Assembly (NCBI GenBank): GCA_964458665.1
Contig: CAYWOO010000192.1
Location: 6,984-70,983 of the forward strand
Direction of reading: 5' to 3'
Length of the DNA: 64,000 bases
Origin: an uncultured Dehalococcoidia bacterium
GTDB lineage: Bacteria > Chloroflexota > Dehalococcoidia > DSTF01 > JACRBR01
Part shown: piece after piece, positions 38,032 through 53,139 of the stretch
Numbering within the stretch: the first letter of the stretch is position 1
Layout of the letters: each line of letters opens with the position of its first letter
Program-made: the position numbers and the translations under genes
Notes under the pieces: generated by a model
The model's database searches: none
Seen by the model: only the letters and a program-made list of their open reading frames with translations
What the model was told of the DNA's origin: nothing

Positions 38032-38244
38032 GGTCTTTCAGTCTCTCGGTCTTTCAGTCTCTCGGTCTCTCCGTCGCTCAGTCGATCGGGCGCTTCGGGC
38101 GCTTCGGGCGCTTCGGGTGGGTGCCCGGAAGATGATGCTGAGTGCCAGCCGAGCAGGGCACGGCACGCCGTGGCCCTACGATTTCGCGCGACGCACATTC
38201 GGCCGTTCATCCTGGGACGCGGGCACGCCACCGCGTGCCCCTAC
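38032..38244. repeat. uvrC-upstream repeat cluster: 2 x 16 bp, 3 x 9 bp, and two family B hairpins
   Basis: ggtctttcagtctctc x2 at 38032..38063. gggcgcttc x3 at about 38088..38114. Family B copies at 38153..38180 and 38219..38244. Confidence 0.8.
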
Positions 38245-39473
38245 TTTGTGGGTGTATGGGTGCGCTTATGCCGGATGCGGGTGAGGCGGTGTTCGAGGGA
38301 CATCTGATCCGCAGCCGGGGCGCGTATCAGGAGTGCGCTCGTGATCTCTTCGGCGGCGGCGAGGTCACGGGCGTGATGCTCGTGGTGCTTGGCTAGCTCG
38401 AGGCCTGCGGGCCTGTCGCCCTGCGCCCACAAGCGGCGCCAGAGGGCCATTGCCTCGCCACGGGCATCTTGACGCTTGCAGAGCGTCGCATGACGGGTGG
38501 CGGCCCACATCCAGTCGCTGCCTCCTTCGAGCCATGGCAGTGCGACCCGGTACAGCCCGGCTGCTCGCTGCGAGTCGCCCGCGCGTTCGTACCAACGCGC
38601 GACAGCCACGGCGTCTTCCGGATCGATGTCGTGCGACGAGAGCAGCGTGGCGAGAGAGGCGAGGATGCCGACGAGCGACAAGACGTCCTCGGCGTTATGT
38701 CGGAAAGCAGCGCGAAGAGGGCTGGCGCGGCCGGCGCGGAGATAGTCGAAGTAGAGTTGCGGAATCAACCAACCCGGGAGATCGTCCGGGCGTTCGATCT
38801 TCAGCAGACGGCGCTCGGCTTCTGCGAGGCGGCACCCGGCCATCCGGTGCCTGTAGAGGCGCCGGACGGGGTGCAGCAGATCGAAGTGCGCCAACGCGCC
38901 ATACGGGGACGGCAGGCGCGCCATGGTCATGCGCGTCTCGACGAACGGCACGTCGAACGTCCGGCCGTTGTACGTCACGAGGCCAGCGAAGCGGCCGATG
39001 TCGGCGGCGAGCATCGCCAGCATCGCCTGCTCGTGCGCTAGGTCCGCGAGGAAGTACTGGCGCAGGCGGAACGCGGGCGGCGCGCCCGGCTCCGCCTCCT
39101 CGTACGTACCGAGGCCAGCGATCACGACGTACGTGCCCGTGCCGCCTGCGAGGCCGGTCGTCTCGATGTCGAAGAAGGCGAGGCGGGACGGGTGCGGCGC
39201 CGCGTCCGCGCCGAGCAGCAGGCGCAGTGCCTCCGGTGCCGCCTCGAGCGCTGCGCTTAGCAGCAGAGCGCCGTGCTGGTGGTCGAGCGGGAACCACTCG
39301 TCACGGACGAAGACGGGGCCGTGCTGGGTCTGGTGCCAGTCGCCGCGGAAGATCTGGGCGATCGGCGGCTTCTCAGGCGCGAGCGGCGGCGGCTGGGGTC
39401 GGAGTTGTGGTCCTTTCGCGACGATGGCGTGGAGGCGATCCCGGAGGAAGGTCGAAGTGGGTGCGGTGGCCAT
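38241..39473 (-). CDS. RNase H-like 3'-5' exonuclease with TPR-like C-terminus (MrfB/YprB-like)
   Basis: Trimmed to the ATG at 39473. LAFFDIETTGL is a DEDD-type exo motif I. The C-terminal half is helical-repeat. It lies immediately downstream of the DUF1998 helicase, as in the B. subtilis mrfAB arrangement. Confidence 0.7.
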   Translation of the reverse strand: MATAPTSTFLRDRLHAIVAKGPQLRPQPPPLAPEKPPIAQIFRGDWHQTQHGPVFVRDEWFPLDHQHGALLLSAALEAAPEALRLLLGADAAPHPSRLAFFDIETTGLAGGTGTYVVIAGLGTYEEAEPGAPPAFRLRQYFLADLAHEQAMLAMLAADIGRFAGLVTYNGRTFDVPFVETRMTMARLPSPYGALAHFDLLHPVRRLYRHRMAGCRLAEAERRLLKIERPDDLPGWLIPQLYFDYLRAGRASPLRAAFRHNAEDVLSLVGILASLATLLSSHDIDPEDAVAVARWYERAGDSQRAAGLYRVALPWLEGGSDWMWAATRHATLCKRQDARGEAMALWRRLWAQGDRPAGLELAKHHEHHARDLAAAEEITSALLIRAPAADQMSLEHRLTRIRHKRTHTPTK

Positions 39474-39825
39474 TGGGGTTCGACCTCCTGTCGCGACGCG
39501 GTCGGCATTGTGCGCCACACCCGCCGCCCGCGCGGGCTGGAAAGCCCGCGCCACGGTGGCGCAAACCGCGCGTTCGTGGCCGCACGGGCGGACACATAGG
39601 TCCGCCCCTACAACATCGCTCACTCGTTCGAGGCGACCAGCCGCACGGCGGATTTAACGCGCCATCGGACGAGCTGTGCTCGTGCGCCACACCCTGCCGC
39701 CCCCACGCGGGCTGGAAAGCCCGCGCCACGGTGTTGGGGAAGCGCCACGGTGGTGGAACGCGCCACGGTGGTGGAACGCACATCCGCACGTTGGTGCCCG
39801 CACGGGCGGACACACAGGTCCGCCC
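39474..39825. repeat. Composite repeat region: two copies of a [family D + family C] unit
   Basis: Family D (CGCGGGCTGGAAAGCCCGCGCCACGG) at 39529..39559 and 39705..39733. Family C (GCACGGGCGGACACAyAGGTCCGCCCCTAC) at 39582..39611 and 39800..39829. Also gcgccacggtggtggaac x2 at about 39741..39778. Confidence 0.85.
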
Positions 39826-42174
39826 CTACACTGCTGCCATCTCGGCCACAGGCTCACAGAGCCGATTCAGCAGCAGCGCTGCGGCACGTTTGTTGGTGCC
39901 GTGCTCGCCTATCGAGGGGCCGACGCAGCCGGGGCAGCCGGAGGGGCATTCGCAGCGGCGCACGACGTCGACCGCCGCCTCGATCAGCTTCGTGTGAATC
40001 TCGAACAGGCGGCGCGCCATGCCGACGCCGCCGGGCTGGTTTTCGTAGAGGAACAGCGTTGGGCGCTCGGTGAAGGGCGAGCGCATCTGGGCGACCGCCT
40101 GGAGGTCGCGCGGATCGCACATGAGGAAGATCGGCGCGAGGTGGCGCAGCAGGTGTGCGATGCCCCAGAGCCCGTCCTGGAGTTCGGCGCGGCCGAGGCC
40201 ATTAACCGCCTCTTCGCTGAGCGAAAACCAGTAGCCTGTGGTGTGGCGGCTCTCCTCCGGAATGCTGATCCTTCCCCAGCCGACGTTTTCATTCGTATCG
40301 AGTTTGATCTTCTTGAAGATGGTGGCCACATCGCGCACAGCGACCTCGCCGTGGTCCACCTCGCAGCCTCGTGAGGGGGCGCGCTCGAACGACTCCAACA
40401 CTTCGAGGTCGACGGCGAGGTTGGCATCGGTGTAGTAATCGACATCGACTTTGTGGACGTAGGCCTTCTTCTCCGCCCAGTCCAGGCGATCGACATGGTA
40501 CTGCTGGCCGGCGTGCATGTAGATCGCCTCGTCGTGGATGAGCAGCGGCGCGGCGGGACGGTCGATCTGGCCGATGACCCGCGGCTTCGGACCTTGCTCG
40601 ATGATCACGAAGTTGTCGATGGCGGCGGAGCGCAGGCTGACGCCCTCGGCCGGGAAGACTTCGGCCATCCAGTGGTAGCGGCCGCCGGCCTTCACGAGTA
40701 CGCCCTCGTCGCTGAGCAGATCGAGCAGCTCGGCTGATCGGTCGCCGAAATCGCCAGCGACACCGGCCACGCCCGCCGTTATATCCTTCTCGTCGAACGG
40801 AAGCTCGAACGCCGCGCATTTCATGTGGCTGACGCGTACCAGCAGGTTGTCCGGGTCGACGAGGCCCGCTTCGGGGGTCGTATCGAACACGTAGTCGGGG
40901 TTGGCAGCGACGTACTGGTTCAGCGGCGACGACGACGCGACGATCACCGAGAACGCGAGGTCGTGGCGGCGGCCGGCACGACCCATCTGCTGCCAGGCGC
41001 TGGCCAGGGTGCCGGGGTATCCGGTCAGCACGGCCGCATCGAGGCCGCCGATATCGACGCCTAATTCGAGCGCGTTCGTGGCGACGACGCCCCGGATGCG
41101 GCCCTCGCGGAGGCCACGCTCGACGGCACGACGCTCGTCCGGCAGGTAACCGCTGCGATAGCCCTCGACTGTGGCGGCGCCCGCGTCGGGGCCGGTGGCG
41201 TGGCCGGGGGGCGGCTTCAGCGCCTCGCGCAGGTAACGCAGCAGCAGCTCGACGCGCACGCGCGATGGCGCGAAGACGATCGTCTGCACGCCCGCCTGCA
41301 GCAGCCGCGAGCCGATCGCCCTTGCGGCGCTGACGGAGCTTTCGCGAATGCCCAGCTCGCGGTTCACGATGGGCGGATTGTAGATGGCGACGACCTTGCG
41401 GCCACGCGGCGCGCCGTTATTGTCGACGAGCGTCACGGGCTTTCGGACGATGTTCTGCGCCAGCTCGGCCGGGTTGGCGATGGTCGCCGAACAGCAGATG
41501 AAGATCGGGTCGGAGCCGTAGAAGCGGCAGACGCGGTGCAACCTGCGAATGACGTTGGCGACGTGGCTGCCGAAGACGCCGCGATACTGGTGCAGCTCGT
41601 CGATGACGACGTAGCGGAGGTTCTCGAACAGCTTCACCCACTTCGTGTGGTGGGGCAGGATGCCGGTGTGGAGCATGTCGGGGTTCGTGACGACAACGTG
41701 GCCGGCCTCGCGCACCTTCCGGCGCGCGTCACCTGGCGTATCGCCGTCGTACGTGTACGTGCCAATTCCGACGCCGAGGTCCGAGACGAGCGCGTGCAGC
41801 TCCTGCATCTGGTCCTGCGCAAGCGCCTTCGTGGGGAAGAGGTAGAGCGCGCGGGCGTCCGGGTCGTCGAGGATCGTCTGGACGACGGGCAGGTTGTAGC
41901 AGAGCGTCTTGCCGGAGGCGGTCGGCGTGACGACGACGACGTTCTCGCGACGTAGTACAGCGGCGAGCGCATCGGCCTGATGCGTGTACAGGCGGTCGAT
42001 GCCGCGGCGGGCGAGGGCGGCGATGAGGCGCTGGTCGGTAGCGGACGGGAAGTCGCCGTAACGGGCGTCGACGGCCGGAAGCTCGCGCCACTCGACGAAG
42101 CCCGATCGCCCGTCGGGGCTGCGGCGGAGTTCGGGGTCGGATCGAAGGGCGTGCAGCGCCTGTTCGAGTGGCAT
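39826..42174 (-). CDS. DEAD/DEAH-box helicase with C-terminal DUF1998 zinc-cysteine domain (MrfA/YprA-like)
   Basis: Trimmed to the ATG at 42174. TPTASGKT (motif I) and VIDELH (DExH). C-terminal RRCECPSGCPGCV four-Cys cluster. Confidence 0.85.
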   Translation of the reverse strand: MPLEQALHALRSDPELRRSPDGRSGFVEWRELPAVDARYGDFPSATDQRLIAALARRGIDRLYTHQADALAAVLRRENVVVVTPTASGKTLCYNLPVVQTILDDPDARALYLFPTKALAQDQMQELHALVSDLGVGIGTYTYDGDTPGDARRKVREAGHVVVTNPDMLHTGILPHHTKWVKLFENLRYVVIDELHQYRGVFGSHVANVIRRLHRVCRFYGSDPIFICCSATIANPAELAQNIVRKPVTLVDNNGAPRGRKVVAIYNPPIVNRELGIRESSVSAARAIGSRLLQAGVQTIVFAPSRVRVELLLRYLREALKPPPGHATGPDAGAATVEGYRSGYLPDERRAVERGLREGRIRGVVATNALELGVDIGGLDAAVLTGYPGTLASAWQQMGRAGRRHDLAFSVIVASSSPLNQYVAANPDYVFDTTPEAGLVDPDNLLVRVSHMKCAAFELPFDEKDITAGVAGVAGDFGDRSAELLDLLSDEGVLVKAGGRYHWMAEVFPAEGVSLRSAAIDNFVIIEQGPKPRVIGQIDRPAAPLLIHDEAIYMHAGQQYHVDRLDWAEKKAYVHKVDVDYYTDANLAVDLEVLESFERAPSRGCEVDHGEVAVRDVATIFKKIKLDTNENVGWGRISIPEESRHTTGYWFSLSEEAVNGLGRAELQDGLWGIAHLLRHLAPIFLMCDPRDLQAVAQMRSPFTERPTLFLYENQPGGVGMARRLFEIHTKLIEAAVDVVRRCECPSGCPGCVGPSIGEHGTNKRAAALLLNRLCEPVAEMAAV

Positions 42175-42287
42175 CCGTGCGTCTCCGTTACGAACAACCG
42201 TACGGGTTGGGAGTATAGGTGTAGAACGGGCGTTCGTCAATGGGAGTTCGTGGTTTGTAGTTGGTAGTAGGTAGTTCTCCGGCGCTT

Positions 42288-42820
42288 CGCGCACCTCACC
42301 GCGGCCGTCGGGCGCGCCCTCCCCGCGACGCGGAGAGGGCTCTCGGTTCGGGGGGAGTGCATTAGAGATCGGGCGGTCGTGCTCGATGAGGGGGCGTGCG
42401 GCGCTGCGCGCACCTCACCCCACCCGTCGGGCGCGCCCTCTCCGCGACGCGGAGAGGGCTCTCGGTTCGGGGGGTGCTGCCAAGGTCGACCGGTAGTGTT
42501 GGAACGTGGCGGCGCGCGGGGCTTCGCGCACCTCACCCCGGCCGTCGGCCGCGCCCTCTCCGCGACGCTGAGAGGGCTCTCGGTTCGGGGGGAGTGCATT
42601 AGAGATCGGGCGGTCGTGCTCGATGAGGGGGCGTGCGGCGCTGCGCGCACCTCACCCCGGCCGTCGGCCGCGCCCTCTCCGCGACGCGGAGAGGGCTCTC
42701 GGTTCGAGGGGGAGTACATCAGAGATTGGGCGGCTGTCCTGGATTAGCGGCGTGCGGCGCTGCGCGCACCTCACCCCGGCCGTCGGCCGCGCCCTCTCCG
42801 CGACGCGGAGAGTGCTCTCG
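42288..42820. repeat. Satellite-like tandem array, about 119-bp period, 5 family A cores
   Basis: Cores start at 42289, 42408, 42526, 42645 and 42764. The inter-core segments 1-2 and 3-4 are identical, 4-5 is related and 2-3 is different. Confidence 0.9.
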
Positions 42821-43061
42821 TCTGGAGAGCTGTTTCGGGTTTGATGCGTCGGTGCGAACAGGACGCGCTCCATTCGCCCGTCAGCAAGCAATCGAGCGAC
42901 GCGCGGGCTGAAAAGCCCGCGCTACGGTAGTGGATGACGATGGTGCGCAGTCTCTCGCGAGATCAGGCCGACTGGCTCGTTGACTCTGCGGGGTGCGGCG
43001 ATAAGATCAGCTACGAACTCGCTACACGGACGCGCCTCGCGCGTGGAAAGGGACGTTGATC

Positions 43062-44171
43062 ATGGCGACGGGTAAGGCTGCGGTGCTGCTGGAGCCGGGC
43101 AAGGGGTACGAGATCCAGGAGTTCGAGGTGCCGACGCCCGAGCCGGGCGGGATCGTCATCAAGGTATCGATGGGCGGCATCTGCGGATCGGACCTGCACA
43201 TCTGGCGCGGCGATTCGCCGCTGTTCGCCGCGATGGCCGGCAGCGTCGCGGGGCACGAGATGACGGGTCGCGTCCACTCGCTCGGTTCGAGCATCACTAC
43301 CGACTCGCTGGGGCGGCCGTTGAAGGAAGGCGATCGCGTCGCGTACAGCTACTTCTATCCGTGCCACCGCTGCTATCAGTGCAACAAGGGCGAGTTCGCC
43401 ACGTGCCCGAACAAGCTGATGACGATGGGCGCGGGGCCGGTGAGCAAGTTCAGCGGCGCGTACGGCGAGTACTACTACCTGAAGCCGGGCGGCTGGATCT
43501 TCAAGGTGCCGGACGAGGTGACCGACGAGATGGCGACGCCCGTGAACTGCGCGCTCTCGCAGGTGACGTACGGACTGCAGAAGGTCGGCATGCGCTACGG
43601 CGACACCGTCGTCATCCAGGGCGCGGGCGGCCTCGGGCTGAATGCCGTCGCCGTGGCGAAGGAGATGGGCGCAGACGCCGTGATCGTCATCGACGGCATC
43701 GCCAACAGGCTCGAGCTGGCGAAGAAGTTCGGTGCGGACGCGACCATCGACATCAGCCAGCTGCAGCCGATGGAGCGCATCGCAAAGGTGCGGCAGCTCA
43801 CGGGCAACCGCGGCGCGGACATCGTCGTCGAGGTCGTCGGCGTGCCGGACGTCATTCCGGAGGGGCTGCAGATGCTCCGTGAGGGCGGCGTGATGCTCGA
43901 GATCGGCAACATCTCGTTTGGGCGCACGGTGGCGATCGATCCGTCGCAGCTCGTCTGGGGCTCGAAGCGCATCCAGGGCGTGATCATGTACGACCCGTGG
44001 GTGATCCCGGAGGCGCTCGACTTCCTGGTGCGGACGAAGAACAAGTACCCGCACGAGGACGTCGTCTCGCACAAGTTCGCGCTGGCCGACATCAACAGCG
44101 CGTTCGAGAACAGCGAGTGGGCGCGCGAGGGCTCGACGACGAAGGTGAACCGCGCGGTTATCACGATGTAG
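43062..44171 (+). CDS. Zinc-dependent alcohol dehydrogenase family (MDR) oxidoreductase
   Basis: ATG at 43062 was preferred over the TTG at 43056. GICGSDLH, GHEMTG and a structural-Zn Cys cluster CHRCYQCNKGEFATC. GAGGLG Rossmann motif. Confidence 0.9.
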   Translation: MATGKAAVLLEPGKGYEIQEFEVPTPEPGGIVIKVSMGGICGSDLHIWRGDSPLFAAMAGSVAGHEMTGRVHSLGSSITTDSLGRPLKEGDRVAYSYFYPCHRCYQCNKGEFATCPNKLMTMGAGPVSKFSGAYGEYYYLKPGGWIFKVPDEVTDEMATPVNCALSQVTYGLQKVGMRYGDTVVIQGAGGLGLNAVAVAKEMGADAVIVIDGIANRLELAKKFGADATIDISQLQPMERIAKVRQLTGNRGADIVVEVVGVPDVIPEGLQMLREGGVMLEIGNISFGRTVAIDPSQLVWGSKRIQGVIMYDPWVIPEALDFLVRTKNKYPHEDVVSHKFALADINSAFENSEWAREGSTTKVNRAVITM

Positions 44172-44242: not shown

Positions 44243-45544
44243 ATGGAACCGCAGATTCGCTACTGCACGACAAGCGACGGTGTCAGCATCGCCTGGGCGG
44301 AGATGGGCCAGGGGCCGCCGCTGCTGCTGTGCGGCCCAACGCCGTTAACGCATGTGCAAGAGCTGCCCGCGATCTACGAACACTTCTTTGGCCAGCTGGC
44401 GCGCTCCTGCCGCTTGATCTGGTTCGATACGCGAGGAACTGGGATGTCCGAACGCGACGTTACGGACGTGTCTGCCGCGACGCTGCTGATGGATGCCGAA
44501 GCCGTAATCAATGCCGCGCAGGTCGACCAATTTGCCGTGTGGTGTTGGGGGAACTTATTGGCGTTATCGACGGCCCTCCACCTTGCAACCGAACATCCCA
44601 ATCGAGTTACACATCTTGTTCTTAGGTCGCCGTTCCAAAGTATGCGCGACGCGGCGGACACGCCGTACGCCAAGACGGGCATGGCGCTCGCGGAGGCAGA
44701 CTGGCCTTCCTACGTAGCGGCCGCGTTTCTCGTCCTGAAGATATCGACAGCGGTCACCCCCGCGGCCGACCTGCTGGCAAAGGCCGCTACTCTCTGGGCA
44801 GATCCCTCCGCGGGCCTTCTGTACAAGAGATTGGAGGAGGCCACAGATCTGGGCGACCGCCTTGCGCGGGTACGCCAACCGACGCTTGTTCTGACGGGAG
44901 AAAAGGACGTCATCCCCGTCCGCGCCAGCCAGCGTGCTGCCGCGAAGATCCCGGGGGCGCAATTTCGGCAATTCTCCGAGAGTGGAATCGACGCGGGACT
45001 GGCGTTCCTCGGGCTATCCACGCCCACCACGAGCGCCCCCGCCGCGCCCTCGGGTATGGCCGTCGTTCTCTTCACCGACATCGTTGACTCCACGGCACTG
45101 ACGGAGAGGCTGGGCGACACGGTGTTCCGCACGGCATCGCGGGCGCTCGACGAAGGGATGCGCGCAGCGATGCGAGAGTCAGGCGGCACGCCGGTGGAGG
45201 GCAAGGTGCTCGGCGATGGCGTTATGGGGGTGTTCACGTCGGCGTCGCAGGCGATCGACGCCGCCCGGCGCTGCATCGAACTGAGCGCCGCGAGCGAATT
45301 GCGGCTGCACGTCGGCCTCCACGCCGGTGACGTGATCCACGAAGCGGGCAACGTCTATGGCGGCGCCGTCAACATCGCGTCGCGCATCTGCGGGCTGTCG
45401 GCTCCAGGTCAGGTGCTCGTGTCGGACACCGTGCGCGGTCTCGCGCGCACGTCGGCGGGTGTGGAGTTCGAGGATCGCGGCGAACAGGCGCTCAAGGGCA
45501 TCGACGACGCCGTGCGGGTGTACGAAGTGCGGTGGCGGGAGTGA
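44243..45544 (+). CDS. Alpha/beta-hydrolase-fold + class III adenylate/guanylate cyclase fusion (paralog 1)
   Basis: Trimmed to the ATG at 44243. The N-terminus MEPQIRYCTTSDGVSIAW is shared with the paralogs. Cyclase motifs FTDIVDST, LGDGVMGVF and GGAVNIASR. Confidence 0.85.
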   Translation: MEPQIRYCTTSDGVSIAWAEMGQGPPLLLCGPTPLTHVQELPAIYEHFFGQLARSCRLIWFDTRGTGMSERDVTDVSAATLLMDAEAVINAAQVDQFAVWCWGNLLALSTALHLATEHPNRVTHLVLRSPFQSMRDAADTPYAKTGMALAEADWPSYVAAAFLVLKISTAVTPAADLLAKAATLWADPSAGLLYKRLEEATDLGDRLARVRQPTLVLTGEKDVIPVRASQRAAAKIPGAQFRQFSESGIDAGLAFLGLSTPTTSAPAAPSGMAVVLFTDIVDSTALTERLGDTVFRTASRALDEGMRAAMRESGGTPVEGKVLGDGVMGVFTSASQAIDAARRCIELSAASELRLHVGLHAGDVIHEAGNVYGGAVNIASRICGLSAPGQVLVSDTVRGLARTSAGVEFEDRGEQALKGIDDAVRVYEVRWRE

Positions 45545-45546
45545 GC

Positions 45547-46905
45547 ATGGAACCGCAGATCCGCTACTGCACGACCTCAGATGGCGCCAGCATCGCCTAC
45601 GCGACGATGGGCGCGGGCCCGGTGGTGATCATGCCGCCGACGGTATATTCCTTTTCCGGACGGCAGCGCGTATTTCCGGGCCATCGGCTGCTGTGCAACG
45701 CGATCGCCGGGCGGTTCACACTGGCGCAATACGACCACCGAGGCATGGGCCTATCCGGGCGCGAACGCCGCGAGTCCGACCTGGATGCGCGCCTTCTGGA
45801 TCTCGATGCTGTGGTGCGTGCCGTTGGCGCGGAGACGTTCGCGCTGTACGGCGGAGGGTTCAGCGGACTGACCGCAATGGCGTACACGGCGCGGCATCGT
45901 GAGCGCGTCACGTGTCTTGTCGTCGCGGATTCATACGCGAGAGGTGGGCAGTTCTATCGCGAGAATCCGATGGGACAGATAATCGATGCGCTCGGTGTCG
46001 TGACGGCCGAGCAGTGGCCCATCGTCACAAACATGATTGGGACCCGCGCCCGCGCTGACGACGACGATCCGCTGTCGGCGCGGGCAATCGGAGCACTGAT
46101 ACGGGAGACGTGGGACCCGGATGCGTTCCTGGCGCACCGGCAGGTCGGACGTCAGATGGATGTGTCGGCGGAACTTTCGGCGATCGCCGTTTCAACGCTC
46201 ATCGTAGCGACCGGTGCAGTCCAAGCTTCGTTCGAGCATTCTCGCGAGCTCGCGGCGGCGATTCCGGGCGCGCGATTGATGCGTGTTGTGTCGCGCTGGG
46301 CGGGCTGGGACGAACGCGACTACGCCACGGTAGTCGCGTTCCTTCGTGAGCACGCGCCGTCCGTCGAGACAGCCGCTGCGCCGACTGCGAGCGCGCCTAT
46401 CGCCGCCCCTTCCGGCATGGTCGTGGTCCTCTTCACCGACATCGTCGACTCAACCGCACTGACGGAGCGGCTGGGCGACACGGTGTTCCGCACGGCGTCG
46501 CGCGCGCTCGACGAAGGGATGCGCGCGGCGATGCAGGAGGCGGGCGGCACGCCGGTCGAGGGTAAGGTGCTGGGCGATGGCGTCATGGGCGTGTTCACGT
46601 CGGCGTCGCTGGCGATCGCCGCCGCCCGGCGCTGCATCGAACTCAGCGCAGAGAGCGAACTGCAGCTCCATGTCGGCCTCCATGCCGGTGACGTGATCCA
46701 CGAAGCGGGCAACGTCTACGGCGGCGCCGTCAACATCGCCTCGCGCATCTGCGGGCTCTCGGCGCCGGGTGAGGTGCTCGTGTCGGGAACCGTGCGCGAG
46801 CTGGCACGAACGTCTGCGGGCGTCGAGTTCGAGGATCGCGGGGAGCAGGAGATGAAGGGCGTGGGGGAGCCGGTGCGGGTGTACGCGGTGCGAGGCGCCG
46901 AATGA
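45547..46905 (+). CDS. Alpha/beta-hydrolase-fold + class III cyclase fusion (paralog 2)
   Basis: The ATG at 45547 lies 2 nt after the paralog 1 stop. By eye, the cyclase half is about nine-tenths identical at the DNA level to paralog 1. The hydrolase half is strongly diverged. Confidence 0.85.
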   Translation: MEPQIRYCTTSDGASIAYATMGAGPVVIMPPTVYSFSGRQRVFPGHRLLCNAIAGRFTLAQYDHRGMGLSGRERRESDLDARLLDLDAVVRAVGAETFALYGGGFSGLTAMAYTARHRERVTCLVVADSYARGGQFYRENPMGQIIDALGVVTAEQWPIVTNMIGTRARADDDDPLSARAIGALIRETWDPDAFLAHRQVGRQMDVSAELSAIAVSTLIVATGAVQASFEHSRELAAAIPGARLMRVVSRWAGWDERDYATVVAFLREHAPSVETAAAPTASAPIAAPSGMVVVLFTDIVDSTALTERLGDTVFRTASRALDEGMRAAMQEAGGTPVEGKVLGDGVMGVFTSASLAIAAARRCIELSAESELQLHVGLHAGDVIHEAGNVYGGAVNIASRICGLSAPGEVLVSGTVRELARTSAGVEFEDRGEQEMKGVGEPVRVYAVRGAE

Positions 46906-48233
46906 GCACGACAGATCCCCAGGTCCGCTACTGCACGACCTCCGATGGCGTCCAAATCGCGTACGTCGTTGATGGCAGCGGTCCGGGCATCCCGGTCATC
47001 TGCATGGGCGCACCCTTTACCGACGTGCGACCGTCCTACTGGGAAGAGTTCGGCTTGACGACCATCGGCGGCGTTTCGCGAGACGCGCGGCCGGTGGCAT
47101 GGTTCGACTTTCGCGGATGCGGCATCTCCGAGAGAAATGTCGAAGACGTCTCCATGGACGCCCTCGAGCTGGATCTTTACGCCGTGATCGAGCGGCTCGA
47201 TTGGCCGCGGTTCTCGCTGATGGCGATGGCCATGACCGGCCCGCTCGTCATGAAGTACGCGGCCGAGCATCCCGATCGTGTCGCCAGCCTTGTACTCCGG
47301 GAGACGTACGCGCGCGCCGCGGAGATGGGGCGCATCCCCCGCATGCGGGCACTGGGGTTGCTCCTGCGTGAGGACTACGAGTCCTACATGATGTTGATGG
47401 TCGCGACAAATGGCTGGTTGAGCGAGGGCGCGCGCCTGATGAAGCTCTTCGCCGGCGCGACAACCGAGGAGATGTGCCGCATGTATGCGGCCGCTTCACC
47501 GACGTTCAACGCGAACATGTTCGTCGACAAGATCCAGGCCCGTACGCTCGTGATCGGCCGCGATGACATGCCCGTGCCGAGCGGCGACATGCTTCGCCAG
47601 CTGGGAGGGCGCATCCGTGACGCACGCGTCGTCATGGAAGCGGGCGGCTTCGCGCGAGACGGCCCTGCGGTGGAGCAGTTCCTGGCCGAAGACGATCCTG
47701 GTGCCGCGGCGCCAGCGCCGACAACTCCCACCGGTACGCGCACGGTGCTGTTCACCGACATCGTCGGCCACACCGAGATGATGCAGCGCCTCGGCGACGC
47801 GAAGGGGCGTGACGTGCTGCGCGAACATGAGCGCATCACGCGCGAAACGCTGAAGCAGCACGGCGGCGCGGAAGTGAAAACGATGGGCGACGGATTCATG
47901 GCGTCGTTCGGCAGCGTGACGTCGGCAATGGAGTGCGCGATCGCGCTCCAGCGAGCGTTCGCTGCGCACACAGATTCAATGCCGGAACCGCTGCACGTCC
48001 GCGTCGGCCTCAACGCCGGCGAGCCCATCGAAGAAGACGGGGATCTCTTCGGCGCGACTGTCATCCTCGCGTCACGCATCGCAGCGAAGGCGGGCGCCGG
48101 CGAGATCCTCGTACCGGACACCGTGCGCGGATTGCTGTCGGGGAAGGGATTCGTGTTCGGCGATCGCGGTGAGTTCGTGCCGAAGGGCTTCGATGAAGGC
48201 GTGCGGCTGTGGGATGTACGTTGGCGGGAATGA
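46902..48233 (+). CDS. Alpha/beta-hydrolase-fold + class III cyclase fusion (paralog 3)
   Basis: The start overlaps the paralog 2 stop (ATGA). Motifs FTDIVGHT, MGDGFMASF and GATVILASR (Ile in place of the catalytic Asn). Confidence 0.85.
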   Translation: MSTTDPQVRYCTTSDGVQIAYVVDGSGPGIPVICMGAPFTDVRPSYWEEFGLTTIGGVSRDARPVAWFDFRGCGISERNVEDVSMDALELDLYAVIERLDWPRFSLMAMAMTGPLVMKYAAEHPDRVASLVLRETYARAAEMGRIPRMRALGLLLREDYESYMMLMVATNGWLSEGARLMKLFAGATTEEMCRMYAAASPTFNANMFVDKIQARTLVIGRDDMPVPSGDMLRQLGGRIRDARVVMEAGGFARDGPAVEQFLAEDDPGAAAPAPTTPTGTRTVLFTDIVGHTEMMQRLGDAKGRDVLREHERITRETLKQHGGAEVKTMGDGFMASFGSVTSAMECAIALQRAFAAHTDSMPEPLHVRVGLNAGEPIEEDGDLFGATVILASRIAAKAGAGEILVPDTVRGLLSGKGFVFGDRGEFVPKGFDEGVRLWDVRWRE

Positions 48234-48407
48234 TCGATCACGCGACGACGGACCGACCGACAGCTTCGACTGGATCTCTCAGGGTCACGTTCGCACAATC
48301 GTCATCAGATGCCCGGCGGGCATGAGCACCGGATTGGTTTGTAAGTCGTGGGAGTTCGTGATCGCGGCAGATTCGGGTGACCATCGGACACGAATTGAAG
48401 CGTGAAA

Positions 48408-48452
48408 CTTCTAATCCGTCGGTCCAGGGTTCGAGTCCGTGAGGGCCCACCA
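48408..48452 (+). pseudogene. tRNA-Arg(TCT)-like 3' half (anticodon loop to CCA); the 5' half is absent
   Basis: The segment reads cttctaa (anticodon loop, TCT) - tccgt - cggtc - caggg-ttcgagt-ccgtg (T arm, one mismatch) - agggccc-a-cca. No matching 5' acceptor, D arm or 5' anticodon stem lies upstream. Confidence 0.6.
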
Positions 48453-48646
48453 TGCATTTCGTTTTTCAGACTATCCTTGGTGCCGGGGCGACCGGCTCGA
48501 ACGGCGCGCCTACGTGGCCCTGGTCTCTTTCGCGGAACGGACATTGACCGTGCGCCTTGGATCGGCGAGTGTTCCGATCAGGCTCCCATCACGGGCCGCT
48601 GAAGAGCATGTGAATCGCGGACAGAGAACCTGGGAGGTTGAGGGCA

Positions 48647-49753
48647 ATGGCTGACATTACGATTCCCCGTACGCCGGCTGACGTCACCGCGGAATGGCTG
48701 ACCGCCGCGCTTCGCGGGACGGCGACGATCACGAAGTCGAGCGTCACGTCGTTCGATATGGAGCCCGACATCGCGGCGGGCGCCGGGTTCATGGGGCAGC
48801 TGGCGCGCGTCAAGCTGCACTACGACCAGCCCGAGCCGGGCGCGCCGGCGGTGCTGATCGCCAAGTTTCCGACGTATGGCCCGGAGAACCGCGCCATCGC
48901 CGACATGTTCCGCATGTATGAGACCGAGACGCGGTTCTACGAGGAGGTCGCGGGCAAGGTTGAACTGCGGACGCCGCGGCGCTACCACAGCGCCCGCGCC
49001 GCGGACAGCACGGACTTCATCCTGCTCATGGAGGATCTCGCACCTGCGCGCGTCGGCGACCAGGTCGTCGGGTGCTCGAGGGCGCAGGCGGAGTTGGCGA
49101 TCCGCGAGCTGGCGAAGTTCCACGCGACGTGGTGGGAGAGCCCACGGCTCGCCGAGCTGGATTGGGTGTGGCCGTTCAACCATCCCGTGCGCTCGGCGGC
49201 GGCCCAGGGCGCCTACGCGGCAGCCTGGGGGCCGTTCAAGCAGATCTGGGCGAAGCAGGTGCCCGCGGATGTGTTGGCGATCGGCGAACAGTTTCACGAT
49301 GCGCTCCCTAAACTCCTCGACCGGCTCGCTGCGCATCCCGTGACGATCACGCACGGCGACTACCGCCTCGATAACCTCTTCTTCGCGACGCCCGAGGGTG
49401 GCGATCCGCTGGCCGTCGTCGACTGGCAGATCATCGCGCTTGGCAGCGGCCCCTTCGATGTCGCCTACTTCATGGCGGGCGCGGTGCCGCCGGAGGACCG
49501 CAGGGCGATGGAGATGGATCTCCTCCGCATGTATCACGGCATCCTCCTGGAGCGCGGGGTGAAGGACTACAGCTTTGACCAGTGCCTGCTCGACTACCGC
49601 AGGGCGGCGATGTTCTGCTGGCAGTACGCGGTGATCATCGTCGGGACGCTCGACGCCTCGAACGAGCGGGGACTGGCGCTGCAAGCCACCGTCCTCGAGC
49701 GTTTTGTTTCGATCATCGTCGACCTGAACGCGGGGGAGCTGTTGTCGGCATGA
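48647..49753 (+). CDS. Phosphotransferase-family kinase (APH/choline-kinase/ecdysteroid-kinase-like)
   Basis: ATG at 48647, 9 nt after GGGAGG. ITHGDYRLDNLFF (Brenner motif) and VVDWQ. Confidence 0.8.
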   Translation: MADITIPRTPADVTAEWLTAALRGTATITKSSVTSFDMEPDIAAGAGFMGQLARVKLHYDQPEPGAPAVLIAKFPTYGPENRAIADMFRMYETETRFYEEVAGKVELRTPRRYHSARAADSTDFILLMEDLAPARVGDQVVGCSRAQAELAIRELAKFHATWWESPRLAELDWVWPFNHPVRSAAAQGAYAAAWGPFKQIWAKQVPADVLAIGEQFHDALPKLLDRLAAHPVTITHGDYRLDNLFFATPEGGDPLAVVDWQIIALGSGPFDVAYFMAGAVPPEDRRAMEMDLLRMYHGILLERGVKDYSFDQCLLDYRRAAMFCWQYAVIIVGTLDASNERGLALQATVLERFVSIIVDLNAGELLSA

Positions 49754-49808
49754 TGCGCCGGGCGACTACCATTCGGAGAGTCGGCCATCGGTACGGTGCA
49801 GGAGACGC

Positions 49809-51272
49809 ATGACCATCGAAGCGCGCATTGAATACGTCACGACGGACGAGGGCGTGAGCCTCGCCTGCACGAAGTTTGGCAGCGGGCCGCCGCTCATCTT
49901 TCACTTCTCTGGTCCGTATGTTTCGCACTTCGAGATGGAGTTCGAGTTTCCTCCCGTACAGGCGGCCTGCGAGGCACTCGCGCGTGTGGCTACGGTTATC
50001 CGATACGACTTCCGAAACACGGGATTATCGACGAGAGGCGTCGAGGACGTCTCCGTCGCGGCGCATGTCCGCGATCTGGACGCCGTGATGCGGCACTTCC
50101 AGCTCGAGTCTGCCGCGCTCCTGTACCCGTTTCATGCTGCGAAGATTGCCGTCGAGTACGCCGCCGCGCAACCCGAGCGCGTGACCGCGCTCGTGCTCTG
50201 GGCGGCGAACCTGGACGCTGCGGGATCCCGATGGGGGACGCCCGTGACCGACATTCTGAAGGCAGCGCTGCGCCTGGGACACGAAGCGTACGCGTCGCTT
50301 TTTGCGGTGATGACCGTCGGGCTCGAGGCTCACGCGAATGCTGCTTGGTACGCGCGATGGGTCTGTGAAGCTTCGAATCTCGATGACTTAATCCGCGTCG
50401 AGGCAGCAATCCACGCGCACAACTCCCGTGAAGCCGCCGTGCGAGTGCGGACGCCAACGCTCTTCGCGAGCCGGCGCTTGCCCTTTTACAACCTCGGCCC
50501 TCCAAGCCCGGAGATGATTCGCGAGCATCGTGCGTTAACAACACACATCGCTGCAACGATCCCCGGCGCCCAGTCGGCCTCGTTCGACGGAACCTCCGCG
50601 TGGATCTCGGGCGACGAGTTCGTCACTGGCCGGATCCCGAAGTTTCTCAACGAGATCCTCGCGAAAGGAGATCCGCAGGGAATCGACTCAGCTGCACCGA
50701 CATCCGGCGGCCTCCGAACGGTGCTCTTCACCGACATCGTCGGCCACACGGAGATGATGCGGCGGCTGGGCGACGCGAAGGGACGCGACGTGCTGCGCGA
50801 GCACGAACGGATCACGCGCGAGACGCTGAAGGCGCATGGCGGCGCGGAAGTGAAGACGATGGGCGACGGGTTCATGGCGTCGTTCGGCAGCGTCACGTCG
50901 GCGATGGAGTGCGCGATCGCGTTGCAGCGGGCCTTCGACGGAGCCCTCACCTCGCCACGGCGAGTCGATGACCGGCCCTCCGGGCCACCTTCTCCTAGAG
51001 GGGGAGAGGGACGCGGGAACGACGAGCGTATCGCGATCCGGATCGGGTTGAACGCCGGGGAGCCGATCGAGGAAGACGGCGACCTGTTCGGTGCGACGGT
51101 GATCCTGGCGTCGCGCATTGCCGCGAAGGCGGGGGCTGGGGAAATCTTCATCCCGGAACCGGTGCGGCACTTGCTCTCCGGTAAGGCGTTCGCGTTCTCG
51201 GATCGCGGCGAGTACGCGATGAAGGGCTTCGACGATTCCGTGCGACTGTACGAAGTCCGCTGGCGGGAGTAG
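49809..51272 (+). CDS. Alpha/beta-hydrolase-fold + class III cyclase fusion (paralog 4) carrying an in-frame REP insertion
   Basis: The cyclase half is near-identical to paralog 3 (TVLFTDIVGHTEMM...MGDGFMASFGSVTSAMECAIALQRAF). It differs by an extra loop, GALTSPRRVDDRPSGPPSPRGGEGRGNDER. Confidence 0.85.
   Translation: MTIEARIEYVTTDEGVSLACTKFGSGPPLIFHFSGPYVSHFEMEFEFPPVQAACEALARVATVIRYDFRNTGLSTRGVEDVSVAAHVRDLDAVMRHFQLESAALLYPFHAAKIAVEYAAAQPERVTALVLWAANLDAAGSRWGTPVTDILKAALRLGHEAYASLFAVMTVGLEAHANAAWYARWVCEASNLDDLIRVEAAIHAHNSREAAVRVRTPTLFASRRLPFYNLGPPSPEMIREHRALTTHIAATIPGAQSASFDGTSAWISGDEFVTGRIPKFLNEILAKGDPQGIDSAAPTSGGLRTVLFTDIVGHTEMMRRLGDAKGRDVLREHERITRETLKAHGGAEVKTMGDGFMASFGSVTSAMECAIALQRAFDGALTSPRRVDDRPSGPPSPRGGEGRGNDERIAIRIGLNAGEPIEEDGDLFGATVILASRIAAKAGAGEIFIPEPVRHLLSGKAFAFSDRGEYAMKGFDDSVRLYEVRWRE
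50943..51011 (+). repeat. Family A REP-like element inside the paralog 4 CDS
   Basis: gccctcacc[tcgccacggcgagtcgatga]ccggccctccgggccaccttctcctagagggggagagggac. Same subtype as the intergenic copies at 30076..30217. Confidence 0.8.
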
Positions 51273-51338
51273 TTGAGTCCGCGAGGCCTCTGCCGTCGTG
51301 CGCTCAACCGCACGAGCGGCTGAACGACGGAGGTGACG

Positions 51339-51880
51339 ATGCGCAAGATTGTGGCCGGGTTGTTCATCACGCTGGACGTCGTCGTCGAGTCGCCGTCGGA
51401 CTGGTGGCGCTTCGATGACGAGATGGGCGAGATATTCGCCGCTGGTCTGGCGCAGGCCGACGCCGTGCTGTTGAGCCGGCGCACGTACCTGCAGTTCGCC
51501 GAGCTGTGGCCGCAACAGGGTAGCGGGTCGCCGATGGCGGCGTTCCTGAACGGCGTTCCGAAGCACGTCGTCTCAAACACGCTGGGTTCGCCGCGTGGGC
51601 GAACTCAAGCCTGGTCACGGGCGACCTCGTCGAGGAGATCACGAAGCTCAAGCAGCAGTCCGGCAAGAACATCCAGATGCCCGGCAGCCCGACGCTCGTG
51701 CGGTCGCTGCTGTGCGCGGGGCTGCTCGATGAGCTGTCGCTGATGGTGCACCCGATCGTGCTCGGCTCCGGCATGCGGCTGTTCGACGACGTCGCGAGCC
51801 CTGTGGCGCTGACGCTCGCCGATTCGCGGGCGCTCGGAAGCGGCGTGGTTTCCGTGACGTACCGGCCGGAGCGCGCGTAA
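51339..51880 (+). pseudogene. Dihydrofolate reductase-like (RibD C-terminal domain) gene with a frameshift
   Basis: Frame A reads MRKIVAGLFITLDVV...VPKHVVSNTLG. The family-typical continuation AWANSSLVTGDLVEEITKLKQQSGKNIQMPGSPTLVRSLL...MVHPIVLGSG is in another frame (track ORF 51677..51880). The shift is near 51583..51595, at a short G run. Confidence 0.75.
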
Positions 51881-52375
51881 TTGACCGAGCGCGCGCGCAC
51901 GATCGCGACCCTCCACCTGACGTGCGGACTGCCGTGCGCAGGAAAAACGACGCTGGCGCGAGAGATCGAGCAGCGCGGTGCGCTGCGGCTGACGTCGGAC
52001 GAGTGGATCAAGCGGCTGTACGGCGATGACCCGGCGGCGCCGCGGGACGAGGCGATCCGGAGTGGCACTGAGGCGGCGCTGTTGGACGTCGCGATGCGCG
52101 TGCTGTCGCTCGGCGTCGACGTCGTGCTCGATTTCGGCGTATGGGCCCGCAGCGAGCGCGAGGAGATGCGTGCGAAGGCGGCAGCCGTGGGCGCACGGAG
52201 CGAACTGCATCTGCGGGACGCGCCGCTGGACGTGCTGATCGCCCGCGTGGCGGCGCGCAACGCCGACCTGCCGCCGGGAACGTTCGCCATCGATGAGGCG
52301 GAGATGCGGTTGTGGGCGACGTTGTTCGAGCGCCCGGATGCGGATGAGCTGCGGCGGCGAGAGCCGGGAGCGTAG
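51881..52375 (+). CDS. P-loop ATPase/kinase (AAA_33-like)
   Basis: CGLPCAGKTTLA Walker A. 164 aa with a TTG start directly after the upstream stop. Confidence 0.7.
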   Translation: MTERARTIATLHLTCGLPCAGKTTLAREIEQRGALRLTSDEWIKRLYGDDPAAPRDEAIRSGTEAALLDVAMRVLSLGVDVVLDFGVWARSEREEMRAKAAAVGARSELHLRDAPLDVLIARVAARNADLPPGTFAIDEAEMRLWATLFERPDADELRRREPGA

Positions 52376-52395
52376 CTCCGCGCGTTGCGCCAGGA

Positions 52396-52558
52396 CGCGC
52401 ACCTCACCCCGGCCTATCGGCGGGACCCCACCTCCGCGCTTCGCGCTGGTCCTCTCCGCCCGGCGGAGAGGAGTGGCGAACGATATCGTGCGTGGCCGGA
52501 TGTTCTCACGGGTGCGGGTGGCATCGGCGGGCGGTACGGGCAGGGCGGACACACAAGT
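52396..52558. repeat. Family A variant plus family C hairpin
   Basis: Family A variant at 52396..52472: gcgcacctcaccccggcc...ctctccgcccggcggagaggag. Family C at 52530..52558: gcagggcggacacacaagtccgcccctat. Confidence 0.8.
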
Positions 52559-52617
52559 CCGCCCCTATGGTGATCGATCGTGGACAGTTGGACTGGTCAT
52601 ACGGCAGGAGGTTACGG

Positions 52618-53139
52618 ATGTCGAACGAAGATCCGATGGTGCTTGCGGCGCGCGGCGTGCTGGCGACGGCGCTCGCGGCGATACGCGGGTGCGTCGAGAG
52701 CGCGTCGCCGGAAGCGCTGAACTGGCGGCCCGGTGGCGATGATACGAGCTCGATCGCAGTGCTCGCCGTGCACTCGCTTGCCAGCACGCGCGGATGGTTG
52801 GCGCGAGCCACTGGTGCGCCGCGGCCGTATCGACATCGCGACGATGAGTTCGCAGTGGTGGCGACGGACGCGGCATCGCTGCTGGTCACCTTCGACGAGA
52901 TCGCGCGCGACTGCACGGCGCTGCTCGCGCAGCCGGTTTCCGTCGATTGGAACGCGATCCTGCCGGATGTCGAGCGTATTCCGGACGGCATGCAACTGCG
53001 CACGGCGTCGACGCCACCGGAGCGCGGCTCGCCCGAGGCGGTGTCCGCGGGATGGGCGCTGATTCACGCACTGGAGCATCTGCGCGAGCATGAGGGGCAG
53101 ATGTTTCTGACGCGGCAGCTGTGGGATCGGCGGGCGTGA
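52618..53139 (+). CDS. DinB-family protein
   Basis: ATG at 52618 after AGGAGG. Four-helix-bundle-like with conserved His positions (AVHSL, HALEHLREHEGQ). Confidence 0.7.
   Translation: MSNEDPMVLAARGVLATALAAIRGCVESASPEALNWRPGGDDTSSIAVLAVHSLASTRGWLARATGAPRPYRHRDDEFAVVATDAASLLVTFDEIARDCTALLAQPVSVDWNAILPDVERIPDGMQLRTASTPPERGSPEAVSAGWALIHALEHLREHEGQMFLTRQLWDRRA

Follow-up and report, generated by a model that had tools for sequence, protein, structure and literature searches.

Among the nearest known systems to the genes analysed here is Rv1900c (LipJ) of Mycobacterium tuberculosis, in which an alpha/beta-hydrolase fold is followed by a class IIIc adenylyl cyclase domain (structures 1YBT and 1YBU). 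The same two-domain order was found in an array of four paralogous genes, g1 to g4, on contig CAYWOO010000192.1 (GenBank assembly GCA_964458665.1) of an uncultured Dehalococcoidia bacterium; the whole stretch of 64,000 nucleotides (nt) of this contig that was analysed is called the window. The hydrolase and cyclase halves of these genes had separate histories. The array is best explained by old modular recombination combined with purifying selection in a LipJ-like family of sensor-cyclases, and a probability of roughly 0.7 was assigned to this explanation.

The NCBIfam model of LipJ, NF058673, was aligned over the full or nearly the full length of the array proteins with E-values of 1e-42 to 1e-46. 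This model is an equivalog for bifunctional lipase/adenylate cyclase with a cut-off of 800 bits, and the array genes scored 144.5-158.2 bits. LipJ is listed as a characterised esterase (PMC10865251), whereas the hydrolase halves of the array carry neither the nucleophilic serine nor the histidine. An earlier sequence-only reading of this DNA had likened the four genes to LipJ; this was borne out for the architecture and the homology over the full length, but not for the family score (144-158 bits) or for the catalytic residues of the esterase. To our knowledge LipJ is a single gene, unlike the array genes with their shuffled domains.

The class III adenylyl cyclase Ma1120 of Mycobacterium avium (4WP3 and related structures) was the best match of the g3 cyclase, which is of type B as defined below, in the Protein Data Bank (E-value 3e-29). 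Ma1120 and g3/g4 are alike in the Lys/Asp substrate pair and in lacking the transition-state Asn, which is replaced by Ala164 in Ma1120 and by Ile in g3 and g4. The solved chains of Ma1120 comprise 171-210 residues and match only the cyclase half of g1 and g3. We know of no array of Ma1120 paralogues. Adjacent paralogous class III cyclases of one architecture are present in M. tuberculosis as Rv1318c-Rv1319c-Rv1320c, which are membrane/HAMP proteins and similar along their whole length. The array family differs from these in having sensor halves of about 30% identity joined to cyclase halves of 80-95% identity, and in its conflicting domain trees. In concerted evolution and domain shuffling of bacterial multigene families, recombination between repeats decouples the history of one segment. 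Compared to this generic case, the exchanged segment in the array family matches a protein domain boundary, the exchanges are of old date, and cyclases of two types are found side by side in the same arrays.

Domain identities within the array

The coordinates of all features are listed in Table 1. In each of the four genes, Pfam searches assigned an Abhydrolase_1/Hydrolase_4 domain to the N-terminal part and a Guanylate_cyc domain to the C-terminal part, and all four reading frames were intact. The architecture was as the sequence-only reading had described it, and so were the junctions of the first three genes: the stop codon TGA of g1 is followed by GC and then by the ATG of g2 (2-nt gap), and the start of g3 overlaps the stop of g2 in ATGA.

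Identities were calculated for each domain from protein-guided codon alignments. The cyclase halves formed the two expected pairs, with 88% amino acid (aa) and 86% nt identity for g1/g2 and 82.5% aa and 78% nt identity for g3/g4, compared to 39-44% aa and 58-59% nt identity in the remaining four pairs. As had also been proposed, the hydrolase halves were far more diverged (29-35% aa and 44-49% nt identity in all six pairs), and a check for uniform divergence over both domains came out negative. The estimate that each cyclase pair is about nine-tenths identical in DNA was correct for the best ungapped blocks of an unbiased repeat search (89%), but too high for the whole halves. The 300-nt block of g1/g2, found by repeat search and sliding-window identity, starts at the linker/cyclase boundary.

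In the cyclase halves, the rates of non-synonymous (dN) and synonymous (dS) substitution were 0.067 and 0.45 for g1/g2, and 0.13 and 0.88 for g3/g4. The best segments still had dS values of 0.38 and 0.53, and dS was at least 0.33 in every cyclase pair. Comparisons of the g1/g2 type (A) with the g3/g4 type (B) gave dS values of 0.67-0.74; the dS of g3/g4 was no lower than that between the two pairs. Because dS amounted to 0.45 and 0.88, the similarity of the cyclases within the array is not recent. The dN of the hydrolase halves was 0.93 for g1/g2 and near saturation in all pairs. Of the four-fold degenerate sites under identical residues, 70% were identical in the cyclase versus 40% in the hydrolase half of g1/g2, and 51% versus 38% in g3/g4.

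An N-terminal tag had been reported as common to the four genes. It was exact in g1 and g2, close in g3 (DPQVRYCTTSDG) and only loosely kept in g4 (EARIEYVTTDEG). The tag corresponds to the beta-hairpin with which the hydrolase fold opens; the AlphaFold2 model places its strands at 4-9 and 15-21. It is conserved throughout the family, and its counterpart in the LipJ model is the beginning of that model. Homogenisation of the tag at the DNA level was considered and rejected. Identity at its four-fold sites was 0.51 (0.36 in the rest of the hydrolase half) and was equal within and between genomes, and therefore reflects conserved protein sequence and alignment quality.

Phylogenies of the two domains

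Relatives were collected by a scan of one genome per species, resulting in 22 loci, often several per metagenome-assembled genome (MAG) and nearly all from Chloroflexota/Dehalococcoidia. Hidden Markov model searches identified 41 complete family members in the window and in loci L002-L020. Trees were constructed separately for the two domains by neighbour-joining with Kimura distances and 500 bootstraps, using our own implementation.

The two trees were in conflict. The hydrolase clades (g1, L004_3, L014_1, L018_1), (g3, L003_2, L008_1) and (L004_4, L010_1) were each recovered in 100% of the bootstraps for the hydrolase, compared to 0% for the cyclase, and the cyclase clades A1 (96%) and B (99%) had 0% in the hydrolase tree. 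Identity over all 820 pairs had a median of 28% in the hydrolase and of 62% in the cyclase half, and the two were correlated with r = 0.13. In the cyclase tree, g1+g2 and g3+g4 were sisters in 0% of the bootstraps; g1 was grouped with L003_1 (90%) and g4 with L007_2 (99%). Over the first 130 codons, the nt identity of the g1 cyclase was 89% to g2, 89% to L003_1, and 87% to L004_3 and L002_1/2 of another MAG.

The same hydrolase lineage was joined to different cyclases. That of g1 was found with an A1 cyclase in the window and in one MAG, with an A2 cyclase in another MAG, and with a type B cyclase in a third. Among approximately 100 database homologues, members of the g1 hydrolase lineage (50-69% identity) had a type B cyclase in about 30 cases and a type A cyclase in about 45. 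A cyclase 84-95% identical to that of g1 was present in at least 20 proteins whose hydrolase halves were unrelated (24-33%). The g4 cyclase contains a rare Pro/Gly-rich insertion (GALTSPRRVDDRPSGPPSPRGGEGRGND, approximately 50940-51023), which is located in a loop and is gapped in g3. This insertion is common only to L007_2 of another MAG, and the hydrolase halves of g4 and L007_2 are 27% identical.

In pairs with orthologous hydrolase halves, dN/dS was 0.2-0.5 in the hydrolase and 0.05-0.16 in the cyclase, i.e., a difference of 2-3 fold. Since dN differed 14-fold between the two halves of g1/g2, rate differences cannot explain the contrast between the domains. Cyclase dS was also compared for non-orthologous genes of the same MAG versus genes of different genomes; values were 0.45 versus 0.51 for A1 (p = 0.02) and 0.62 versus 0.88 for A2 (p<0.0002), and the difference for type B was not significant.

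Recombination breakpoints

The pairwise homoplasy index (PHI) test was performed with our own implementation on the cyclase codon alignments, and the max-chi2 test was run on triplets of sequences. PHI was positive for all three cyclase groups (p = 0.002 for A1, <0.001 for A2, and <0.001 for B), and max-chi2 breakpoints were detected in g2, L003_2, g3 and g1. The cyclase of g2 is a mosaic, A1-like over approximately 400 nt and A2-like over the last 90 nt or so, with a breakpoint at about cyclase nt 396-413 (p<0.0005). The cyclase of L003_2 is g3-like over 386 nt and then L007_2-like (p<0.0005), and that of g3 is nearer to g4 than to L018_1 only up to about nt 197 (p = 0.0015).

A further breakpoint was evident from the comparison of g3 with its orthologue L003_2, for which dS was 0.26 in the hydrolase and 0.77 in the cyclase half, and identity at four-fold sites was 81% versus 54% (Fisher's exact test, p = 2e-5). 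The drop in identity was located at the linker. Recombination breakpoints are thus present both at the linker and inside the cyclase.

Tandem arrays and synteny in other genomes

The 41 family members were mostly arranged in tandem arrays of 2-6 genes. One contig of the Joint Genome Institute (JGI) carried at least nine copies, and the identical gene order was found in a second sample. A protein database search yielded 3268 homologues at E<=1e-20, whose named sources were Chloroflexota/Dehalococcoidia adenylate/guanylate cyclases. The array genes belong to a large LipJ-like family that was found here almost only in uncultured Chloroflexota/Dehalococcoidia. The members are usually oriented head-to-tail and often translationally coupled, in arrays of two to at least nine genes. 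No description of these arrays was found in literature searches. Near arrays on JGI contigs, large proteins with Guanylate_cyc and AAA_16 (plus TPR) domains were observed (L025 102-3206 and L023 1060-4395), and L025 8679-9998 resembles a split (frameshifted) family member.

Upstream synteny with the window was found for locus L003, comprising UvrC, an RNase H-like protein and an MrfA-type helicase (77-91% aa identity), followed by an alcohol dehydrogenase (ADH; 97% aa identity). The array of L003 consists of two genes. One has a hydrolase half 37% and a cyclase half 94% identical to those of g1, and the other is the g3 orthologue. In locus L007, three genes lie behind the same ADH (97% aa identity), and their hydrolase halves are different again. 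In the comparison of the window with these two loci, synteny ended downstream of g3. Because the locus behind the ADH carries different hydrolase cassettes in three genomes, array content turns over at an orthologous position.

Active-site residues of the cyclase and hydrolase halves

The scores of the four genes against Guanylate_cyc (PF00211) were 40.7-70.6 bits at a cut-off of 21.9. The AlphaFold2 model of g1 had a predicted local distance difference test (pLDDT) score of 92.8, with a disordered linker at residues 262-269. Using Foldseek, the g1 cyclase half was superposed on the cyclase domains of Rv1900c (1YBU) and Ma1120 (5D0E) with template modelling (TM) scores of about 0.9 and root-mean-square deviations of 1.4-1.5 Å (TM 0.9 and 1.4 Å for Rv1900c).

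All four genes have the two metal-binding Asp, the substrate Lys and the transition-state Arg, and among the 41 members conservation was 41/41 for the first Asp, 40/41 for the Lys, 41/41 for the second Asp and 41/41 for the Arg. Two signatures were distinguished. Type A (g1, g2) reads D-K-D-N-N-R: the second specificity position, canonically Asp, is occupied by Asn, and the canonical Asn of the transition state is kept. Type B (g3, g4) reads D-K-D-D-I-R, with Asp at the former position and Ile instead of Asn at the latter. Among the 41 members, D-K-D-N-N-R was found in 28 and D-K-D-D-(I/T/Q)-R in 13, often both in one array, and the two positions change together. Ma1120 is an active adenylyl cyclase with Ala at the position of the transition-state Asn, and its exchange A164N abolishes activity (PMC4215837). 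Since Ma1120 is active in this form, type B proteins may well be active, too. Mixed A/B dimers with complementary active sites were considered and rejected: the Lys, the Asp/Asn, the residue at the Asn position and the Arg are all contributed by one subunit, so that neither of the two mixed sites would be fully canonical.

The N-terminal half of g1 resembles esterases and enol-lactonases (3OM8, 6EB3, 5EGN; TM 0.72-0.78, Foldseek), and its pLDDT was above 90 over most of its length. Searches at the sequence level pointed to the same neighbours as the structural comparison. The position of the nucleophile is occupied by Leu in g1, Gly in g2, Ala in g3 and Phe in g4 according to the family alignment. 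The elbow GNLLA of g1 was aligned to GNSIG of the esterase 5egn, and GGGFS of g2 to GGSWG of 1qtr. A triad His was found in none of the hydrolase halves of g1-g4, and Ser at the nucleophile position was found in 0 of the 41 members when the family alignment was read by hand. A Ser-His-acid triad with a G-x-S-x-G elbow is thus absent from these hydrolase halves. Judged by these residues, the hydrolase half is a predicted pseudo-enzyme that has lost the catalytic Ser and His, and its fold is a putative ligand-binding or regulatory module. L012_1 carries G-H-C-F-G at the nucleophile elbow, the Cys being a candidate nucleophile in a family that otherwise lacks Ser at this position.

Origin of the array

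According to the preferred explanation, many old hydrolase lineages, which are mutually about 25-35% identical, were joined repeatedly to a few cyclase types. The joining occurred by homologous recombination, in the form of unequal crossing-over or of gene conversion; breakpoints lay at the linker as well as within the cyclase, and strong purifying selection then kept each cyclase type nearly constant. On this view, the similarity of the pairs g1/g2 and g3/g4 is a trace of old shuffling and not of a recent event in the array. The sequence-only reading had anticipated the separate histories of the two halves, which the conflicting trees (100% versus 0% bootstrap) and the positive PHI and max-chi2 tests confirmed. 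It had further suggested gene conversion or recent duplication confined to the output domain, with diversifying sensor domains. A recent event, homogenisation specific to the array and diversifying sensors were not upheld, given cyclase dS values of 0.45 and 0.88, the lack of a sister relation of g1+g2 or g3+g4 (0% of bootstraps) once other genomes were added, and hydrolase orthologues that are under purifying selection and form old, distinct lineages.

Recent gene conversion or partial duplication in the array, homogenising the cyclase halves of g1/g2 and g3/g4, is unlikely. The 300-nt and 223-nt blocks (89% identity) begin precisely at the linker, g3 is nearer to g4 than to L018_1 over the first 197 cyclase nt or so, and cyclase pairs of the same MAG have lower dS than pairs of different MAGs, all of which such an event would leave behind. 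The dS values, however, are too high even in the best segments (0.38 and 0.53), the cyclases of g1 and g4 group with those of other MAGs at 90% and 99%, and the g1 and g2 cyclases resemble A1 cyclases of other MAGs no less than they resemble each other. As the main cause, recent conversion in the array is largely refuted. Tandem duplication of whole genes without recombination, followed by slow change of the cyclase and fast change of the hydrolase half, was rated as improbable. It agrees with the lower dN/dS of the cyclase (0.05-0.16 versus 0.2-0.5) and with the near-saturated hydrolase dN in all pairs, but leaves unexplained a 14-fold dN gap in g1/g2 at an orthologue rate ratio of just 2-3 fold, the four-fold-site identity of 70% versus 40% in the same pair, the conflict of the trees at 100% versus 0% bootstrap, and the occurrence of one hydrolase lineage with type A or B depending on the genome.

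It is highly improbable that the mosaic is an artefact of metagenome assembly or binning, with chimeras formed via the conserved cyclase repeats. The conserved cyclase repeats and the origin of all loci from MAGs or metagenome contigs would agree with this, but the pattern recurs in more than 10 independent assemblies, the array of at least nine genes has the same order in two different samples, and the four reading frames in the window are intact. Exact k-mers shared at assembler settings of k127-k141 are unlikely because paralogous cyclases are at most 89% identical in DNA. The idea that the genes are Pycsar-like anti-phage defence cyclases is hardly credible. PADLOC gave weak matches to PycC (E-values 7e-7 to 4e-3, 15-27 bits), which are far weaker than those to Pfam Guanylate_cyc, Ma1120 and Rv1900c; no effector with a cyclic-nucleotide-binding domain was present among the neighbours examined, and the surroundings are core chromosomal genes (UvrC, Mur ligase, Obg, enolase). 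A reading as a defence system was rejected on the grounds of the low PycC scores and of the lack of an adjacent effector sensing cyclic nucleotides in the annotated neighbours.

Several points weigh against old modular recombination with purifying selection as the full explanation. With third codon positions only, PHI gave p = 0.069 (A1), 0.002 (A2) and 0.34 (B), i.e., B was not significant and A1 marginal. All comparison sequences are from metagenome assemblies. The dS values of 0.4-0.9 are imprecise at 80-90% GC at third codon positions (GC3), and the dS of flanking genes versus the closest MAG ranged from 0.29 to 0.98; because of this range, the recombination events are undatable relative to speciation. 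Since cyclase dS within genomes was somewhat lower in A1 and A2, some homogenisation within genomes may have taken place in addition.

Genomic setting

Table 1. Features of the sensor-cyclase array and its surroundings (positions in the window)
Feature	Position	Strand	Description and evidence
Zn-dependent alcohol dehydrogenase (ADH)	43056-44171	+	Pfam; upstream syntenic edge of the array
Gene 1 (g1), 433 aa	44243-45544	+	alpha/beta-hydrolase fold + class III cyclase; open reading frame (ORF) list, Pfam
g1, hydrolase fold	approx. 44243-45040	+	followed by disordered linker
g1, type A cyclase	approx. 45044-45541	+	
Gene 2 (g2), 452 aa	45547-46905	+	architecture as g1; mosaic type A cyclase; Pfam, max-chi2
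Gene 3 (g3), 443 aa	46902-48233	+	architecture as g1; type B cyclase; orthologue of L003_2
tRNA 3'-end-like motif, 25 nt	48428-48452	+	T-loop GGTTCGAGTCC, 11 nt, CCA; pattern search
EcKL/APH-family kinase, between g3 and g4	48647-49753	+	Pfam EcKL 3e-24, APH 9.5e-13
Gene 4 (g4), 487 aa	49809-51272	+	architecture as g1; type B cyclase with insertion
Top similarity block, cyclase g1/g2	45040-45339 vs 46401-46700	+	300 nt, 89%; repeat search, sliding-window identity
Top similarity block, cyclase g3/g4	47739-47961 vs 50715-50937	+	223 nt, 89%; repeat search
Next (3') block, pair g3/g4	47998-48245 vs 51037-51284	+	248 nt, 75%; repeat search

The window has a G+C content of approximately 66%. Its genes include ones of the chromosomal core (Dxr, RseP, IspG, enolase, KsgA, UvrC, Mur ligase, Obg), and it is therefore not a mobile element. 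On the minus strand, UvrC (36109-38010), a protein of the RNase_H_2 superfamily (38241-39623) and a DEAD-box helicase with an MrfA Zn-binding domain (39826-42294) are adjacent. This row resembles the MrfA/MrfB-type repair pair beside UvrC, and its order is kept in L003. Located 3' of g4 are a small AAA_33 kinase-like gene (51881-52375) and a DinB/mycothiol-S-transferase-like gene (52492-53139). Long ORFs on the opposite strand at 51367-52552 had no Pfam matches and look like shadow ORFs. A scan for promoters and terminators gave counts at chance level and was uninformative for this phylum.

The kinase between g3 and g4, described as APH-like in the sequence-only reading, was verified by Pfam with scores above threshold (EcKL 86.3 bits, cut-off 22; APH 48.9 bits, cut-off 23.2). 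Among the 22 fetched loci, a single distant tblastn match (30% identity) was obtained, and the kinase is not a regular neighbour of the cyclase family elsewhere.

The tRNA remnant that had been placed between g3 and g4 was reduced to a 25-nt motif. The pattern GGTTCGAGTCC-N11-CCA occurred once, with 0 expected in shuffled sequences. ARAGORN detected no tRNA gene in the window and 13 loci, and Rfam gave no tRNA match at E<=10 in 48200-48700, but only a chance match to a snoRNA. No cloverleaf was found in the motif region, whose fold z-score of 0.18 was no better than that of shuffled sequences. As to a scar of integration, no integrase was present among the neighbours, and a second copy of the motif was searched for by exact pattern only. 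The motif is not a tRNA gene and could at best be a short remnant of the 3' end of a tRNA.

The g3 stop codon is located within GGGAATGA (window 48225-48325) and forms an ATGA overlap like that of the g2/g3 junction. The overlapping ATG opens an ORF of just 31 codons (MIDHATTDRPTASTGSL...), which is perhaps left over from a further array gene that was lost downstream. The codons of the C-terminal ...VRWRE* of the family (CGG TGG CGG GAG TGA; window 45530-45549) contain a Shine-Dalgarno-like GGAG a few bases 5' of the next ATG. Because these codons supply the GGAG, conservation of the C-terminus may in part be due to a role in translating the next gene.

Implications for signalling in the family

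From the architecture of the proteins, we infer that each paralogue would link a different small-molecule or protein signal to the synthesis of cyclic AMP (cAMP). Paralogues of the same type share near-identical dimer interfaces and are co-translated, and may therefore form mixed dimers. A more far-reaching proposal, possible but doubtful, is that the arrays are an evolvable cassette library, in which homology arms let sensors be inserted, deleted and re-paired with two interchangeable cyclase outputs, and mixed dimers could combine signals into one cAMP output. A conserved block of about 580 nt, comprising the cyclase, the stop/start junction (with GGAG from the ...WRE* codons) and the first 25 or so codons of the next gene, would flank each variable sensor cassette of about 0.7 kb and serve as the homology arm.

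High similarity of a paralogue domain within one genome alone is no proof of a recent event. The coexisting N/N and D/I signatures represent a natural experiment on the substrate-specificity and transition-state positions of class III cyclases. Some alpha/beta-hydrolase folds of plants act as receptors. Thousands of members of the family exist in soil and sediment Chloroflexota, which are uncultured and almost unstudied with respect to signalling, and their pseudo-enzyme folds may be receptors. The locus shows how signal input can be diversified in bacteria while the output stays fixed, with a unit of exchange that matches a domain boundary in a second-messenger enzyme.

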